DNA from: a virus
Lineage: Duplodnaviria > Heunggongvirae > Uroviricota > Caudoviricetes
Length of the DNA: 14,941 nucleotides
Strand: one strand, 5' to 3'
Virus record (IMG/VR): IMGVR_UViG_2545824709_000009
Position 1 is the first letter of the stretch, and each line of letters opens with the position of its first letter. The notes under the pieces were generated by a model, which did no database searches, was not told the DNA's origin, and saw nothing but the letters and a program-made list of their open reading frames with translations. Of this stretch, positions 1,419 to 13,374 are shown piece after piece. The position numbers and the translations under genes were made by a program.

Positions 1419-2489
1419 TTATTTGATTTCAATTTTGTCCCACTCCCTGCCTCTGTCATCACGATACTGTGATGCCATGGTGTCCGACTTATGCCCGAGA
1501 AGATGTTGAGCAAACTTATCGCTTATCTGCTTCTCATAGAGTCTTGCAGACAAACTGCGCAACTCGTGAAAGGTAGGCGGATCCCCTTCGAAGGAAAGAC
1601 CTGATGCTTTTCGTGCGCGCATAAAATACCTTGATACTGTGCCGGATGAAAGCGGTTCGCGACGAGTAGATGCAATTATGGTTTCTCCGCCAAGAATCTC
1701 TTTGCATTTATCAAGTGTTTCCTTCATTGATATTCCGAGAGCATCAACATGCAATGCTGTTGGGATGGCAATTTTTACGCCTGTTTTGCTTTGCTCGACA
1801 TAAAGATATCCATCTACGATATCAGACCACTTCATTTCGCATAAATCACCAACTCGTTGCCCGGTAACAACAGCCAGTTCCATTGCAAGTCTGAGCCAAC
1901 ATGGTGATGATTCTGCTGCTTGATAAATTTTCAGGTATTCGTCAGCCGTAAGTCTTGATCTCCTTACCTCTGATTTTGCTGCGCGAGTGGCAGCGACAGG
2001 GTTTGTTGTTATATGGCCTTCAGCTATTGCCTCTCGGAATGCATCGCTCAGTGTTGATCTGATTAACTTGGCTGACGCCGCCTTGCCCTCGTCTATGTAT
2101 CCATTGAGCATTGCCGCAATTTCTTTTGTGGTGATGTCTTCAAGTGGAGCATCAGGCAGACCCCTCCTTATTGCTTTAATTTTGCTCATGTAATTTATGA
2201 GTGTCTTCTGCTTGATTCCTCTGCTGGCCAGGATTTTTTCGTAGCGATCAAGCCATGAATGTAACGTAACGGAATTATCACTGTTGATTCTCGCTGTCAG
2301 AGGCTTGTGTTTGTGTCCTGAAAATAACTCAATGTTGGCCTGTATGGCTTCAGTGATTGCGATTCGCCTGTCTCTGCCTAATCCAAACTCTTTACCCGTC
2401 CTTGGGTCCCTGTAGCAGTAATATCCATTGTTTCTTATATAAAGGTTAGGGGGTAAATCCCGGCGCTCATGACTTCGCCTTCTTCCCAT
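1419..2489 (-). CDS. int: Tyrosine integrase, lambda Int type
   Basis: 356-aa ORF starting MGRRRSHERRDLPPNLYIRNNGYYCYRDPRTGKEFGLG and ending ...HLLGHKSDTMASQYRDDRGREWDKIEIK. Recognised from memory as essentially lambda Int, with the expected 3' end about 70 bp from the att core. Confidence 0.97.
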   Translation of the reverse strand: MGRRRSHERRDLPPNLYIRNNGYYCYRDPRTGKEFGLGRDRRIAITEAIQANIELFSGHKHKPLTARINSDNSVTLHSWLDRYEKILASRGIKQKTLINYMSKIKAIRRGLPDAPLEDITTKEIAAMLNGYIDEGKAASAKLIRSTLSDAFREAIAEGHITTNPVAATRAAKSEVRRSRLTADEYLKIYQAAESSPCWLRLAMELAVVTGQRVGDLCEMKWSDIVDGYLYVEQSKTGVKIAIPTALHVDALGISMKETLDKCKEILGGETIIASTRREPLSSGTVSRYFMRARKASGLSFEGDPPTFHELRSLSARLYEKQISDKFAQHLLGHKSDTMASQYRDDRGREWDKIEIK

Positions 2490-2685
2490 TTCTGATCCTC
2501 TTCAAAAGGCTACCTGTTACTGGTCGATTTAAGTCAACCTTTACCGCTGATTCGTGGAACAGATACTCTCTTCCATCCTTAACCGGAGGAGGGAATATCC
2601 TGCACTCGCGTACCCATCGACGAACTGTTTCAAGGCTTCTTGGGCGTCGCTGGCGTGCGTTCCACTCCTGAAGTGTCAAGTACAT
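2467..2685 (-). CDS. xis: Excisionase, lambda Xis type
   Basis: 72-aa ORF MYLTLQEWNARQRRPRSLETVRRWVRECRIFPPPVKDGREYLFHESAVKVDLNRPVTGSLLKRIRNGKKAKS, overlapping the int start by 23 nt as in lambda. Confidence 0.95.
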   Translation of the reverse strand: MYLTLQEWNARQRRPRSLETVRRWVRECRIFPPPVKDGREYLFHESAVKVDLNRPVTGSLLKRIRNGKKAKS

Positions 2686-2710
2686 CGCAAAGTCTCCGCA
2701 ATTACACGCA

Positions 2711-2733
2711 AGAAAAAACCGCCATCAGGCGGC
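2711..2733 (-). terminator. Putative intrinsic terminator just upstream of xis in the leftward transcript
   Basis: Minus-strand reading gives CCGCC-tgat-GGCGG followed by TTTTTTCTT (plus strand aaaaaaccgccatcaggcgg). Confidence 0.5.
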
Positions 2734-6743: not shown

Positions 6744-7034
6744 TTAGTGATTCAGGCCGTTACCGCGTCCGTCGAGAAAAACTTCCACGAGCAAATCACG
6801 GGTATAAGTGCGCTCGATGCCGCGATGCAGATAAAGCCGTCCGCGTAAATTAGCTGATGCAGTCCAGGTACCATCTTTGTGTTTGACCAGCATTCCTGGC
6901 ATGACCGCACCTCGATTAACGGTCTGCGTTCCGTAATGTTGATGAACCATAAAAACTCCTGCCCGTAAGCTGGGCTGCTGAACATATAAAGACTTCTGCG
7001 CGTATTCAGGCGGTGGATGGCCGCCGGTTGTCAT
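6744..7034 (-). CDS. Hypothetical early-left protein at the kil/cIII position (first ORF downstream of pL)
   Basis: 96-codon ORF from the track. An internal ATG at 6950 (MVHQHYGTQTVNRG...) is preceded by a strong AGGAG RBS and may be the real start, giving 68 aa. Its stop sits where lambda kil ends. No family recognised, and no arginine-rich motif of N type. Confidence 0.5.
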   Translation of the reverse strand: MTTGGHPPPEYAQKSLYVQQPSLRAGVFMVHQHYGTQTVNRGAVMPGMLVKHKDGTWTASANLRGRLYLHRGIERTYTRDLLVEVFLDGRGNGLNH

Positions 7035-7204
7035 AACTAAGCCGCCTCGTTGAAGCGACTAAGGTATGAAATGTTGAGTTAATTTCAGCTGGTCACACCG
7101 ACGTTCACGCGTCCGTTTCACCCCTCGCACTCCCCGAAGCCTGCTGAAATTCAAACTGCGGATCTAAGCGGTCATCGCAACGGTGAATCAGGTAGTTGCC
7201 GTAT

Positions 7205-7290
7205 CGTTGTGTTGTTGCGATGAACTTATTTAAAACTATAGTTGTTTTATCGTCAACAACAAAAGTTGTTTTATTGGTTGTTTTAGATAT
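7205..7290 (-). promoter_or_regulatory. Putative OL operators and pL promoter
   Basis: Palindrome GTTGTTttatcgtcAACAAC (7241-7260) overlapping a -35 TTGACG (minus strand, 7251-7256), with a TTTTAAAT -10-like element about 16-17 bp downstream (7228-7235). Further GTTGTTTTA half-sites at 7265 and 7277. The module is nearly a copy of the OR/pR module at 8277-8312. Confidence 0.5.
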
Positions 7291-7396
7291 AACTGGTTGT
7301 ATTTAGGATGGATTTATTTTGTGACTTGAATCGCATAGCGATAACTGAAGCGAGGTTATGGTGGTTTTTTTAACGGTGTGTGTGATGAGGGGAGGG

Positions 7397-7424
7397 CAAA
7401 AGAAAACCCGGCACGGTGACCGGG
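7397..7424 (-). terminator. Putative intrinsic terminator downstream of cI
   Basis: Minus-strand reading gives CCCGG-tcaccgtg-CCGGG followed by TTTTCTTTTG, about 120 nt past the cI stop. Confidence 0.5.
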
Positions 7425-7545
7425 ATTCTTACGCCGTTAGGTAAAGATATTATTGCGGTGGCTTAATATTACTACCTAGAGCAAAGATAGGAATTAGTTC
7501 TTTACTGAATGAGCACAATGCCCAGTTGATAATTTTTAATTGGTA

Positions 7546-8235
7546 CTACCCATGCTTCCTATATGTCTGCGGCATGCTCCCAATAACCTTACCGAAGATG
7601 AACACCCGGTTCATCTCGTCTTTCTCGATCGGGTCCCACGGTGAGTAGCTTTTGTTATCAGAGATGACCAGCAGCTTATTCTTCATCATTTGCAGGCGCT
7701 TTACATGGGCTGTGTCGTCGTACAGAAACGCATAGATACCATCACCGTCGAAAGATTTAACTGTGATATCAACGAACAGCAGATCACCTGGTTCGATCGT
7801 TCCTGACATGCTGTCACCACGCACGTTAATGATGCGGATATTTTCCGCCTTCCTACCATCGAACATGTGACGAGCATCGTCAAACGAGTACTCAACCGAG
7901 CGTAGAACTTCTACAAACTCACGGTTGATGACTCCCGGCCCAGCACTGACTTCTATATCAAGAACGTCAATCTTGAAGTATTTGGAATGGCTGACAGTTG
8001 ATTGTATTGGTTGCACTGTACTGTCTGACATATTTCCAACGCCAGAAGATAACCATTCTGCGCGCACACCCAAAGCGTTCGCGATCTCCACGATTTTAGT
8101 TGTTTGATTAGCTTTCCCTGTTTCGATTTTCTGAATAGCAGCCTGGCTAACCCCGACCAAATCCCCAAGCGCCTTTTGTGTAAGGCCTCGCGCTAATCTG
8201 GCTTCTTTAAGTCTTTCTGAGAGTGTTGTTTTCAT
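7546..8235 (-). CDS. cI: Prophage repressor CI (N-terminal HTH, C-terminal S24 LexA-like autopeptidase domain)
   Basis: ORF with start chosen at MKTTLSERLKEARLARGLTQKALGDLVGVSQAAIQKIETGK (HTH, XRE-type); C-terminal domain carries the GDSM serine motif and a downstream Lys (AHVKRL). The track's upstream extension (to 8301) runs through the operator region and is unlikely. Divergent from cro across an operator region. Confidence 0.9.
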   Translation of the reverse strand: MKTTLSERLKEARLARGLTQKALGDLVGVSQAAIQKIETGKANQTTKIVEIANALGVRAEWLSSGVGNMSDSTVQPIQSTVSHSKYFKIDVLDIEVSAGPGVINREFVEVLRSVEYSFDDARHMFDGRKAENIRIINVRGDSMSGTIEPGDLLFVDITVKSFDGDGIYAFLYDDTAHVKRLQMMKNKLLVISDNKSYSPWDPIEKDEMNRVFIFGKVIGSMPQTYRKHG

Positions 8236-8339
8236 AGTCCAAATGTACAACCAAGGTTTTATTCCATCAAACGAAAATGGTTGTTGACTAAAAACAACCA
8301 TAGTTTTAATCTTGATTCAAATTAACCACGGAGGTTGTT
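8236..8339. promoter_or_regulatory. OR operator region with divergent pRM/pR promoters
   Basis: 25-bp palindrome ATGGTTGTTgactaaaAACAACCAT (8277-8301) containing -35 TTGACT (8284-8289), with a TTTTAAT-like -10 about 16 bp downstream. Extra half-sites ACAACC (about 8243) and GGTTGTT (8333-8339). Lies between divergent cI and cro. Confidence 0.6.
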
Positions 8340-8570
8340 ATGAACCCAGCTATCAAAACAGCGATCAATATCGTTGGTTCACAAAAGAAACTGGGCGCTG
8401 CTTGCGAAGTTTCACAGCAGGCCGTCTATAAGTGGCTTCACAACAAAGCAAAGGTATCCCCTGAACATGTCGGCAGCATTGTTACGGCTACTGGTGGAGT
8501 AGTGAAGGCATACCAGATTCGCCCGGATCTTCCGAAGTTGTTTCCACACACCGAAAAGAACGCAGCTTAA
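8340..8570 (+). CDS. cro: Cro-like HTH regulator
   Basis: 76-aa ORF directly right of OR and divergent from cI; small HTH-like protein (…QKKLGAACEVSQQAVYKWLHNK…). Confidence 0.8.
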   Translation: MNPAIKTAINIVGSQKKLGAACEVSQQAVYKWLHNKAKVSPEHVGSIVTATGGVVKAYQIRPDLPKLFPHTEKNAA

Positions 8571-8595: not shown

Positions 8596-8639
8596 TAAGC
8601 AATCAACTTAACAGTCAATTCAAACTAAAGGAGTCAATT

Positions 8640-9179
8640 ATGCAACCACTTACATACCAACAGACTAGCGGATTTAGCCCGACTGCGGTGATAAATCGTT
8701 CTCAAACAAAACAGGTGCCAGGCCACGAAAAAATCCGTGATGCCGTCCGCGCCTGGTCGGCTGTAGATAATCAGGATGTCGTTGCCACACTCATTGTGAA
8801 TGAGTATCGGGAGCAGGGCGGCGGCACCATCGATTTCCCTGATGATGTCAGCCGTGCACGCCAGAAGCTGTTCCGCTTCCTCGATAACAAATTCGATTCT
8901 GAAAAATACCGAAATAATGTGCGTGAACTGACCCCGGCAATTCTGGCGGTACTACCGCTGGAATATCGCGGTTACCTGGTTGAGCAGGATAGCTTCATGG
9001 CTAGGTTGGCTGAAATGGAAAAGGAACTCAGTGAGGCAAAACAGGCTGTCATTCTCAACGCACCACGCCACCAGAAACTGAAGGAAATTAGTGAAGGTAT
9101 TGTGTCGATGTTTCGTGTGGACCCAGATCTGGCTGGTCCATTGATGGCGATGGTTACTACCATGCTGGGGGCGATATGA
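8640..9179 (+). CDS. CII-position regulatory protein, probably YdaT family (the CII analogue of Rac-type immunity regions)
   Basis: 179-aa ORF with a good RBS (aaggag) between cro and O. Motifs NEYREQGGGTIDFPDD and LTPAILAVLPLEYRGYL resemble my recollection of YdaT-like proteins. Not similar to lambda CII. Confidence 0.6.
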   Translation: MQPLTYQQTSGFSPTAVINRSQTKQVPGHEKIRDAVRAWSAVDNQDVVATLIVNEYREQGGGTIDFPDDVSRARQKLFRFLDNKFDSEKYRNNVRELTPAILAVLPLEYRGYLVEQDSFMARLAEMEKELSEAKQAVILNAPRHQKLKEISEGIVSMFRVDPDLAGPLMAMVTTMLGAI

Positions 9180-9265
9180 CAGGTTCAGAAATGGCGAAAG
9201 CCGGTCTGCTGGAACAGAACCGACTTTCAGGTGCAAATCGTAACACACTCATTGCGGGAGGAATT

Positions 9266-10195
9266 ATGGCAAACACTGCTGAGATATTCAATTTTCCAGT
9301 GCCGGATGCGGCACAAAAGGAGCCGCGCGTGGCAGATCTCGATGATGGTTATACGCGCATTGCAAATGAGTTGCTGGAAGCTGTGATGCTGGCCGGATTA
9401 ACACAGCACCAGCTTCTGGTCTTCCTGGCTGTCATGCGCAAAACATATGGCTTTAATAAAAAACTGGATTGGGTGAGCAACGAGCAACTTTCCGAGTTGA
9501 CCGGGATATTGCCGCACAAGTGTTCTGCTGCAAAAAGTGTTCTGGTAAAGCGTGGGATTTTTATTCAGAGTGGGCGGAATATCGGCATTAATAATGTGGT
9601 CAGTGAATGGTCAACATTACCCGAATCAGGTAAGAAAAATAAAGTTTACCTGAAAGAGGTAAATTTACCTGAATCAGGTAAGAAAAGTTTACCCAAATCA
9701 GGTAAAGGCGTTTACCCGAATCAGGTAAACACAAAAGACAAACTAACAAAAGACAATATAAAACCTTTTTCGTCCGAGAATTCTGGCGAATCCTCTGACC
9801 AGCCAGAAAACGACTTTCCTTTGGAGAAACTGGATGCTGCAATTCAGAGCGGCAGCAAGTGGGGGACAGCAGAAGACCTGACCGCCGCAGAGTGGATGTT
9901 TAACATGGTGAAGACCATCGCGCCCTCAGCCAGAAAACCGAATTTTGCAGGGTGGGCTAACGATATCCGCCTGATGCGTGAACGTGACGGACGTAACCAC
10001 CGCGACATGTGCGTGCTGTTCCGCTGGGCATGCCAGGACAACTTCTGGTCCGGTAACGTGCTGAGTCCGGCCAAACTCCGCGACAAGTGGACCCAACTCG
10101 AAATCAACCGTAACAAGCAACAGGCTGGCGTGACAACCGGAAAATCAAAACTCGACCTGACAAACACTGACTGGATTTACGGGGTGGATTTATGA
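9266..10195 (+). CDS. O: Replication initiator O (lambda O type, with divergent N-terminal iteron-binding domain)
   Basis: Start chosen at the ATG after GGAGG (MANTAEIFNFPVPD...), aligning with the lambda O N-terminus; the track's longer ORF starts at 9176. The C-terminal half (from ...SSENSGESSDQPENDFPLEKLDAAIQSG...) is recognised as near-identical to lambda O. Contains the iterons. Confidence 0.9.
   Translation: MANTAEIFNFPVPDAAQKEPRVADLDDGYTRIANELLEAVMLAGLTQHQLLVFLAVMRKTYGFNKKLDWVSNEQLSELTGILPHKCSAAKSVLVKRGIFIQSGRNIGINNVVSEWSTLPESGKKNKVYLKEVNLPESGKKSLPKSGKGVYPNQVNTKDKLTKDNIKPFSSENSGESSDQPENDFPLEKLDAAIQSGSKWGTAEDLTAAEWMFNMVKTIAPSARKPNFAGWANDIRLMRERDGRNHRDMCVLFRWACQDNFWSGNVLSPAKLRDKWTQLEINRNKQQAGVTTGKSKLDLTNTDWIYGVDL
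9617..9770. repeat. ori: Replication origin: five ~19-bp palindromic iterons plus AT-rich region inside O
   Basis: TTACCCGAATCAGGTAA (9617), TTACCTGAAAGAGGTAA (9646, variant), TTACCTGAATCAGGTAA (9665), TTACCCAAATCAGGTAA (9689), TTACCCGAATCAGGTAA (9713), followed by acaaaagacaaactaacaaaagacaatataaaacc. Same architecture as lambda ori but different iteron sequence. Confidence 0.8.
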
Positions 10196-11192: not shown

Positions 11193-11259
11193 TGAAACAG
11201 GTGAGTTGAGTTCAAACTGTAGTACAATTCTCTCCAGTTTGAACAGGAAAGAATATGCT

Positions 11260-11592
11260 ATGAATCCTTATATTTATCTTGGTGGTGCAATACTTGCAGA
11301 GGTCATTGGTACAACCTTAATGAAGTTTTCAGAAGGTTTTACACGGTTATGGCCATCTGTTGGTACAATTATTTGTTATTGTGCATCATTCTGGTTATTA
11401 GCTCAGACGCTGGCTTATATTCCTACAGGGATTGCTTATGCTATCTGGTCAGGAGTCGGTATTGTCCTGATTAGCTTACTATCATGGGGATTTTTCGGCC
11501 AACGGTTGGACCTGCCAGCCATTATAGGCATGATGTTGATTTGTGCCGGTGTGTTGGTTATTAATTTATTGTCACGAAGCACACCACATTAA
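11260..11592 (+). CDS. emrE: SMR-family multidrug/quaternary-ammonium efflux transporter EmrE
   Basis: 110-aa protein from MNPYIYLGGAILAEVIGTTLMKFSEGFTRLWPSVGTIICYCASFWLLAQTL... with an AGGAAA RBS, recognised as EmrE. The track's upstream extension (from 11206) lacks support. Confidence 0.95.
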   Translation: MNPYIYLGGAILAEVIGTTLMKFSEGFTRLWPSVGTIICYCASFWLLAQTLAYIPTGIAYAIWSGVGIVLISLLSWGFFGQRLDLPAIIGMMLICAGVLVINLLSRSTPH

Positions 11593-11847: not shown

Positions 11848-13374
11848 ATGAAAAAAGCCATAGCATATATGCGATTTTCATCACCAGGTCAGATGTCTGG
11901 TGATTCATTAAACCGCCAGAGAAGGCTTATTACTGAATGGCTAAAGGTAAATAGTGATTATTACCTTGATACCGTAACGTATGAAGATTTGGGGTTAAGC
12001 GCATTCAATGGAAAGCATGCACAATCAGGAGCTTTTTCGGAATTTTTAGATGCTATAGAACATGGTTATATATTGCCAGGGACTACATTGTTAGTTGAAA
12101 GTCTGGACAGACTTTCAAGAGAAAAAGTCGGTGAAGCGATTGAGCGTCTGAAATTGATTTTGAATCACGGTATTGATGTTATAACTCTTTGCGATAATAC
12201 AGTCTATAATATTGACTCATTGAATGAGCCATATTCATTAATAAAAGCCATACTTATAGCACAAAGGGCAAATGAAGAAAGCGAGATAAAGTCAAGTCGG
12301 GTTAAATTATCATGGAAGAAAAAACGGCAGGATGCACTGGAGTCAGGCACGATTATGACGGCGTCTTGTCCGAGATGGCTCTCATTGGATGACAAAAGAA
12401 CGGCTTTTGTTCCAGACCCCGACAGGGTGAAAACTATTGAGCTAATTTTTAAACTCAGGATGGAAAGGCGCTCATTGAATGCAATAGCCAAGTATTTAAA
12501 TGATCATGCTGTAAAGAATTTCTCAGGAAAAGAAAGTGCATGGGGACCTTCTGTAATTGAAAAATTATTAGCGAATAAAGCTCTGATAGGTATATGCGTA
12601 CCTTCATATCGTGCAAGAGGTAAAGGAATAAGTGAAATCGCTGGCTATTATCCCAGAGTCATATCAGATGATTTGTTTTACGCTGTGCAGGAAATTCGGT
12701 TGGCACCTTTTGGTATTAGCAATAGTAGCAAAAATCCTATGTTGATAAATCTACTTCGAACAGTTATGAAGTGCGAGGCTTGTGGTAATACCATGATTGT
12801 TCATGCGGTATCTGGAAGTTTGCATGGCTATTATGTTTGTCCGATGAGAAGACTGCATCGATGTGACAGGCCATCAATAAAGAGAGATTTGGTTGATTAT
12901 AATATCATTAATGAGTTGCTTTTTAATTGTAGTAAAATCCAACCAGTTGAAAACAAGAAAGATGCTAATGAAACTTTAGAGTTGAAAATTATTGAGCTCC
13001 AGATGAAAATTAATAATTTAATTGCTGCATTATCTGTTGCGCCTGAAGTTACCGCTATAGCAGAAAAAATCAGAGTATTAGATAAGGAATTACGAAGGGC
13101 TTCTGTATCATTAAAAACTTTGAAGAGTAAAGCGGTGAGTTCACTTGGTGATTTTCATGCTATTGACTTAACCAGTAAAAATGGGCGAGAGCTATGTCGT
13201 ACACTTGCCTATAAAACATTCGAAAAAATCATAATCAATACAGATAATAAAACCTGTGATATCTATTTTATGAATGGCATTGTTTTTAAACACTATCCTT
13301 TAATGAAAACAATATCTGCCCAGCAGGCGATAAGTACTCTCAAATATATGGTTGATGGTGAGGTTTATTTTTGA
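11848..13374 (+). CDS. ybcK: Large serine recombinase (YbcK-like; resolvase catalytic domain, recombinase domain, zinc ribbon, coiled coil)
   Basis: 508-aa ORF. N-terminal AYMRFSSPGQ motif (catalytic Ser), Cys cluster CEACGN...YYVCPM...C, and a C-terminal predicted coiled coil (LELKIIELQMKINNLIAALS). Very AT-rich. Length and gene order ren-emrE-ybcK match the DLP12 arrangement from memory. Confidence 0.85.
   Translation: MKKAIAYMRFSSPGQMSGDSLNRQRRLITEWLKVNSDYYLDTVTYEDLGLSAFNGKHAQSGAFSEFLDAIEHGYILPGTTLLVESLDRLSREKVGEAIERLKLILNHGIDVITLCDNTVYNIDSLNEPYSLIKAILIAQRANEESEIKSSRVKLSWKKKRQDALESGTIMTASCPRWLSLDDKRTAFVPDPDRVKTIELIFKLRMERRSLNAIAKYLNDHAVKNFSGKESAWGPSVIEKLLANKALIGICVPSYRARGKGISEIAGYYPRVISDDLFYAVQEIRLAPFGISNSSKNPMLINLLRTVMKCEACGNTMIVHAVSGSLHGYYVCPMRRLHRCDRPSIKRDLVDYNIINELLFNCSKIQPVENKKDANETLELKIIELQMKINNLIAALSVAPEVTAIAEKIRVLDKELRRASVSLKTLKSKAVSSLGDFHAIDLTSKNGRELCRTLAYKTFEKIIINTDNKTCDIYFMNGIVFKHYPLMKTISAQQAISTLKYMVDGEVYF

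Follow-up and report, generated by a model that had tools for sequence, protein, structure and literature searches.

The stretch of DNA analysed here, referred to as the window, comprises the 14,941 nucleotides of the IMG/VR virus record IMGVR_UViG_2545824709_000009. It is the left arm of a lambdoid prophage at the lambda attachment site, as follows from its left end, where a host ybhC-like gene, an att junction near 1331 and int and xis genes 99.4% identical to those of lambda are found. The original prediction had pointed to a gene of 179 codons at 8640–9179 in the slot of cII; the gene is real, its coordinates agree exactly with the ORF listing, and the gene order (repressor, Cro-like gene, 179-aa gene, lambda-type O and P) is that expected for a gene in this slot. 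The main features, in the order of the map, are the following.

1419–2489, minus strand: int
2467–2685, minus strand: xis
2698–2711, minus strand: CII-binding repeats TTGCgtgtaaTTGC of lambda pI, just upstream of xis; the int-xis-pI module is 99.4% identical to lambda
7546–8301, minus strand: CI/LexA-like repressor gene (HTH_3 and Peptidase_S24), divergent from the Cro-like gene; expected target of a pRE-like transcript
8277–8301, plus strand: operator palindrome ATGGTTGTT-N7-AACAACCAT, overlapping the pR-like promoter
8284–8312, plus strand: pR-like promoter read from the sequence, TTGACT (8284–8289), 17-nt spacer, TAATCT (8307–8312)
8340–8570, plus strand: Cro-like gene of the YdaS family (PF15943, E=4e-17), 76 aa, first gene of the rightward operon
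8629–8634, plus strand: strong, consensus Shine-Dalgarno sequence AAGGAG of the cII gene, 5 nt 5' of its ATG
8640–9179, plus strand: cII gene, YdaT family, ATG start, 179 aa
9291 to 9263, minus strand: promoter-like TTGAAT-17-CATAAT, conserved with the promoter region of the phi80 M3 RNA (oop homologue)
11206–11592: EmrE/QacE-like SMR transporter gene, DLP12-like cargo of the nin region
11848–13374: YbcK-like large serine recombinase gene, 508 aa, DLP12-like cargo of the nin region

The immunity region and its flanks

The repressor ORF of 251 aa, annotated as such in GenBank relatives, is 22 codons longer than the repressor homologues, which begin with MKT... and have 229–231 aa. Translation therefore probably begins at the ATG at 8235 (MKTTLSERL...) and not at 8301: this is where the homologues start, and the 22 additional codons of the long ORF run over the operator region, spanning the operator palindrome and the –35 element of pR. 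A clean terminator (7424–7407, minus strand) lies after the repressor gene. Further to the left, kil occupies 6744–7034 (minus strand), and between kil and the repressor gene (7035–7545) there is no ORF of at least 40 aa; a pL-like promoter (TTGACG-17-TTAAAT, approximately 7256–7228, minus strand) is found instead, followed by a 200-nt GC-rich leader that extends towards kil and is common to phages with different immunity regions. This leader was considered as a put-like antiterminator RNA and discarded, since its fold is no better than that of shuffled sequence (z=–0.05). Neither an N-like nor a cIII-like gene was seen in the window.

The original prediction had brought in the YdaT family as one that accompanies immunity modules of the RacR/YdaS type. 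Here this description fits the Cro-like gene, which belongs to the YdaS family, but not the repressor, which is of the CI/LexA S24 type and not RacR-type. The cII gene is located between the cro/ydaS-like gene and the replication genes and is divergent from the prophage repressor, the genomic context characteristic of ydaT. In most of the other upstream classes that we compared (loci L024, L186 and L197, phi80 itself as L242, and many others) a conserved hairpin, GCCGCnTAAnnGCGGC, lies approximately 25–55 nt 5' of the cII start; it contains the stop codon of whichever cro precedes it and is followed by CCTAACCACGAAAGGGAAAGCA and then by the ATG. This hairpin resembles an element common to the junctions, or else a processing or tR1-like signal, and is absent from the AT-rich 69-nt spacer of the window.

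Downstream of cII the operon continues with lambda-type O (PF04492), P (PF06992), Ren, the EmrE-like gene and the YbcK-like serine recombinase. In the annotation, O begins at 9176 and overlaps the stop codon of cII; however, the ATG at 9266, preceded by the ribosome-binding site GGAGG, is probably the start codon in use. Alignment with phi80 supports this choice, which leaves between cII and O a gap of 86 nt matching the one that holds the oop-like M3 RNA of phi80. The conservation of the leftward promoter-like sequence with that of M3 makes an oop-like antisense RNA, running leftward into the cII-O gap, a candidate in the window as well. A weak hairpin is present in this gap (9203–9224), and Rfam at gathering threshold returned nothing in the window, the gap included.

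Family assignment and predicted fold of the CII protein

The resemblance to the YdaT family had been recognised by eye, and correctly so: in a profile search the 179-aa protein matched Pfam YdaT_toxin (PF06254) with 103.5 bits against a cut-off of 21 (E=8.5e-30) and no CII family. It also matched PHROG 163, 'CII-like transcriptional activator', over profile positions 1–168 of 168 (E=3.9e-67), while no NCBIfam model and no PADLOC match were obtained. The protein is, as had been noted, about twice the size of lambda CII (179 aa vs 97 aa), and the supposed lack of kinship between the two was borne out by the absence of a Phage_CII match at E≤1 and by a pairwise BLASTP E value of 0.38. A search of PDB sequences returned only the solved YdaT structures 8bt1 and 3c4r (E=0.002–0.004); the similarity to CP-933P YdaT is distant when the single sequence is used (phmmer E=0.002), and a profile built from 23 homologues reaches 8bt1 with E=6e-8.

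The structure was modelled with AF2 from an alignment of close homologues together with Rac-type sequences, as the 23 close homologues alone gave a DNA-binding domain with pLDDT below 50; with the combined input, pLDDT is approximately 90 over residues 30–115. The model predicts helices at 30–43, 45–58, 70–82, 88–104, 107–113 and 119–138, with a loop at 59–69, that is, a POU-like five-helix HTH (residues ~30–115, recognition helix 70–82) with a long alpha2-alpha3 loop, followed by a long alpha6. When the model was submitted to Foldseek, YdaT 3c4r and 8bt1 were the sole significant PDB matches (probability 1.00, TM 0.72–0.74; rmsd 2.7–3.1 A over ~120 columns with 27–28% identity; next match E=1.1), and no lambda CII structure was among the matches. 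Helix 119–138 aligns with alpha6 of the Rac-type proteins, the helix through which the solved relatives form a tetramer held by a four-helix bundle. The alignment also shows an N-terminal extension of 27 residues and ~40 extra C-terminal residues with respect to the Rac-type proteins: the former has pLDDT below 50, with residues 1–24 predicted disordered, and the latter are predicted to form two helices (143–160 and 162–177) that are missing from Rac and CP-933P YdaT. R79 aligns with the essential R57 of Rac YdaT and is invariant across both subfamilies; the position of Rac W58 is taken by F80, and Rac H56 has no clear counterpart. Judged by its profiles and by its predicted structure, the protein is a YdaT-family DNA-binding regulator to which lambda CII is unrelated.

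Its nearest well-known relative is CII of phi80 (PHI80_49), with 66% identity over the full length (1–179 vs 1–180, E=7e-93), the N-terminal extension and the C-terminal helices included, which places it in a subfamily of proteins of 179–181 aa. Translated searches of phage genomes gave comparable values for mEp237 CII (66–67%, full length) and 52% for the CII proteins of HK225 and HK639, and genes annotated as 'cII' or 'CII-like transcriptional activator' in PhiR34_1, IdasGreatGrand, 4A7, D2, Perceval and others encode proteins 96–100% identical; the orthologue is labelled cII already in the 1988 record of the phi80 early region (X13065). The identity with Rac YdaT is 35% over the DNA-binding domain (E=2e-12). 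Altogether 705 homologues were retrieved, mostly of 179–180 aa, from Citrobacter, Klebsiella, Enterobacter, Salmonella and others, and the allele with its upstream 69 nt (at least 80% coverage) is found in 2196 of 5426 complete E. coli genomes (~40%), where RefSeq gives the product as 'toxin YdaT domain-containing protein'. On these homologies the gene is a phi80-type cII of the YdaT family, ordinary, known, widely annotated and partly characterised. In phi80 it occupies the same slot, between cro-like and O-like genes, whereas repressor, cro and operators differ, and the int and xis of the window are those of lambda and not of phi80. A side observation concerns two members of the subfamily: HK225 CII (L243, 1501–2046) and phi80 CII (L242, 2501–3043) form an intragenic mosaic, with C-terminal halves near-identical from approximately residue 115 and different N-terminal DNA-binding domains (QKVFRW vs QKLFRF).

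The function of the Rac-type relatives is documented in several studies. YdaS and YdaT were assigned as the equivalents of Cro and CII from their context (Casjens, 2003, cited in Jobling, PMC5917428). The YdaT of CP-933P, homologous to phi80 CII according to Jurenas et al., is non-toxic and activates a PRE-like promoter between ydaS and ydaT (PMC8630535); its crystal structure displays a POU-like HTH and a tetramerising helix, and the tetramer footprints on TTGATT-N6-AATCAA (PMC9986795). With the window protein it shares Pfam family, CII slot, POU-like HTH, long alpha2-alpha3 loop, alpha6 (PDB 8BT1, of which 3C4R is a close homologue) and the recognition-helix motif QK[IL]FR[WF]LD, but with its 141 aa it has neither the N-terminal extension of 27 residues nor the two C-terminal helices, and its own C-terminus is disordered. 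Rac YdaT, a tetramer of 140 aa whose partner is RacR, in place of the S24 repressor of the window, requires H56/R57, and W58 for its fold; it binds ATGATT-N6-AATCAA over its own start codon, increasing the transcription of the repressor gene up to 29-fold, and although it is only ~30% identical to CP-933P YdaT, the two proteins cross-bind each other's box (PMC11879457).

The original prediction had left two roles side by side, toxin and CII analogue. That the protein is the toxin of a YdaS/YdaT toxin-antitoxin pair, devoted to growth arrest and not to regulation, is what the Pfam names (YdaT_toxin, YdaS_toxin) and the RefSeq product name imply, and overexpression of Rac YdaT does result in filamentation and death. 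However, according to PMC11879457 the toxicity comes about through transcriptional activation of rcsA, and PMC5917428 and PMC9986795 trace the toxin label to a prediction algorithm and state that it failed when put to experimental test. The non-toxic CP-933P protein, the HTH DNA-binding fold predicted here, the lack of a PADLOC match, the phage immunity context and the position of the gene in the cII slot of plaque-forming temperate phages all argue against it as well, so that a toxin function is highly improbable and largely refuted already; toxicity on overexpression, if any, would result incidentally from the action of a transcription factor. The CII-analogue part of the proposal is thus supported, and the issue is largely settled in print (PMC5917428, PMC8630535, PMC9986795, PMC11879457): this reading is right but already known, as the literature treats YdaT as a CII analogue and not as a toxin.

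A conserved box and a candidate –10 element within the cII gene

Approximately 240 related loci were compared, and conservation was scored on 24 representatives whose nucleotide identity to one another is below 90%. The same cII allele lies behind at least two unrelated cro modules, with homology breaking exactly at the ATG, and the genome matches likewise begin at query position 67–69, i.e., at the ATG; elements co-evolving with the protein should therefore sit inside the gene. Two such elements were found, both candidates on the grounds of conservation, with a presumed function.

8688–8705, no strand assigned: candidate CII/YdaT operator GTGATA-AATCGT-TCTCAA, codons 17–22 of cII
8667–8662, minus strand: candidate –10 element TAGTCT of a leftward pRE-like promoter

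The core of the box, TGATA...TCAA, is invariant in the 24 representatives, synonymous sites included, and nowhere in the gene is there a longer stretch of invariant nucleotides than TGATAAA (nt 50–56). Third-position conservation peaks at codons 17–22, which score 0.944 and rank first among 174 six-codon windows (mean 0.716, sd 0.086). Ile is encoded by the rare ATA, and Gln by CAA, in 24 of 24; codon 21, which may specify A, S, N or T, always ends in T. These sites combine into the consensus [AG]TGATA-AAYCGY-nnTCAA, whose geometry is that of a YdaT box, and in the Salmonella clade the sequence ATGATA-AATCGC-AATCAA is one mismatch away from the Rac box ATGATT-N6-AATCAA, which we located in the K-12 sequence (L241, 2179–2196). 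The copy in the window keeps the invariant core, matches 8 of the 12 specified positions of the Rac or CP-933P box and is more degenerate than that of phi80. Exactly 20 bp to the left of the box, all 24 representatives carry TAnnnT on the minus strand, the only TAnnnT conserved in every one of them anywhere in the gene on either strand; it reads TAGTCT in the window and TATTGT, TATTTT, TATCCT or TATCAT elsewhere, and one of its bases falls on a third-codon position that is constantly T whether the residue is N, T, D or S. The interval between box and TAnnnT is free of indels, though residues 10–16 are the most variable of the protein. The same layout recurs in phi80, whose N-terminal extension carries ATGATAAACCGCGCTCAA and TATTGT at equal positions, in a Klebsiella phage and in HK225, where the DNA-binding domain is different and the box reads ATGATT-TACCAG-AATCGC; the embedded box thus differs along with the domain, being ATGATT-N6-AATCGC in HK225 and ATGATA-N6-GCTCAA in phi80.

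This conservation suggests that, as in lambda, the gene contains a leftward promoter of the pRE kind. The signal has to be read with the caveat that the synonymous component is modest (z ~2.7) and that the conserved INRxQ peptide may be under selection at the protein level. Moreover, the –10 candidate of the window, TAGTCT, is weak and was not flagged by the promoter scan, and no pRE is annotated in the GenBank record of phi80. In the window as a whole, the canonical TTGATT-N6-AATCAA with up to three mismatches occurs 16 times against 13 expected, so it is not enriched, nor do such matches exceed chance close to cII, and near int and xis there is no further copy of the subfamily box TGATA-N8-TCAA. 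Two other candidates around the start codon were dropped: a good –10 sequence, CATAAT, over the start codon on the minus strand, which is not conserved in other upstream classes, and a direct repeat of two copies of AGTCAATT 5' of the ATG, considered as a CII site, which is specific to the cro module of the window and absent from other modules carrying the same gene. Separately, a perfect YdaT box (TTGATT-TTGGGA-AATCAA; ~0.001 expected by chance in 14 kb) was noticed in PhiR34_1 (L001, PV340559) at 12985–13002, between ybcM and ybcN in the nin region; the immunity region of this phage is 99.9% identical to that of the window, where this nin box is absent, and the site is a possible further CII/YdaT target, a counterpart of paQ in lambda.

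Taken as a whole, we consider it likely that the gene encodes a phi80-type CII protein of the YdaT family that acts as a lysogeny-favouring activator of a leftward promoter; homology establishes the phi80-type assignment, the POU-like HTH and the long helix. The protein would be made from the rightward early operon, after Cro, and would bind an inverted repeat related to TTGATT-N6-AATCAA. Once bound, it would switch on a leftward promoter whose transcript, antisense through cro and extending into the CI-like repressor gene, would favour lysogeny. Operator and –10 would both lie inside the first 22 codons of the gene itself; if TAnnnT is the –10, transcription would start near 8655 in the leftward direction, with the centre of the box near –41.5, and the disordered 27-residue N-terminal extension would be translated regulatory DNA. 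A comparable layout exists in lambda, where a TTGC-N6-TTGC site (on the minus strand within codons 4–8 of cII in the lambda sequence) and pRE overlap the start of cII, so that the activator site and the establishment –10 sit in the 5' end of the gene for the activator or adjoin it. Lambda CII has the same slot and presumably the same role, and both proteins combine an HTH with an oligomerisation element; they show no detectable sequence similarity, however, the lambda site is a direct repeat whereas that of the YdaT family is an inverted repeat, and no TTGC-N6-TTGC is present between cro and cII of the window.

The proximal, class-II-like arrangement is not a rule of the YdaT family. PMC9986795 places the main operator of CP-933P, a perfect TTGATT-N6-AATCAA where ydaS ends, on the downstream side of PRE, and in Rac, where the box overlaps the ATG at the 5' end of the gene (that of the window, also at the 5' end, is 18 nt further upstream relative to the start of the domain), it acts on PracR4, ~190 bp away inside ydaS (PMC11879457). 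The distant promoter, the host target rcsA and the toxicity are features of Rac YdaT, none being known for the window allele. By this precedent, and given the weakness of TAGTCT, the CII analogue might use the conserved box to activate a distal leftward promoter inside cro, TAnnnT being coincidental or having another role. We regard this as rather unlikely: the promoter scan found no promoter-like site on the minus strand within cro, the cro modules 5' of the same allele are mutually unrelated and each would need a promoter of its own, and TAnnnT stands out as the only one conserved in the gene, at a fixed spacing from the box.

A further possibility is that the main role of the protein is to repress or modulate rightward or host promoters, such as that of the cI-cro intergenic region or rcsA, and not to establish the repressor. 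Rac YdaT binds the racR-ydaS intergenic region and the rcsA promoter (PMC11879457), and the window has a box-like sequence with two mismatches just after the –10 of pR (8312–8329). The latter was treated as a chance match, being within chance expectation and not conserved in L209, the closest heterologous immunity region, and phi80 cII was named and annotated as a decision gene; this alternative appears to us improbable, and the activation of a leftward establishment promoter remains the preferred reading.

Possible consequences for the lysogeny circuit

Lambda CII, besides pRE, also activates pI and paQ. In the window, TTGC-N6-TTGC occurs as a sole copy, at the lambda pI, whose repeats are intact, and no lambda-type CII is encoded; a phi80-type CII probably cannot read the lambda-CII boxes of pI. 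Of the 5426 complete E. coli genomes, 356 have the arrangement from int to cII, which makes the combination an evolutionarily successful one. From these observations we put forward, tentatively and at somewhat less than an even chance, a joint proposal: the establishment promoter and its operator lie in the first 22 codons of cII, the N-terminal extension is mainly their carrier, and either Int expression does not depend on CII or the YdaT fold acts at lambda pI. A promoter and operator embedded in the first codons would explain why the mosaic junctions fall exactly at the start codon, and with junctions at the ATG the gene and its proposed site travel together.

In itself, the identification of the gene matters little, as it is a common, annotated lysogeny regulator whose 'toxin' label has been corrected in the literature; it is of use as a warning on annotation, since RefSeq still applies the toxin name in more than 2000 complete E. 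coli genomes. Its by-products, namely a pRE and operator predicted within coding sequence and a lambda pI whose activator is missing, offer testable ideas on how mosaic lambdoid phages keep their lysogeny circuit coherent. On the joint proposal above, either the expression of Int during lysogenisation would be independent of CII in these phages, or a protein of the YdaT fold could act at a promoter of lambda CII.
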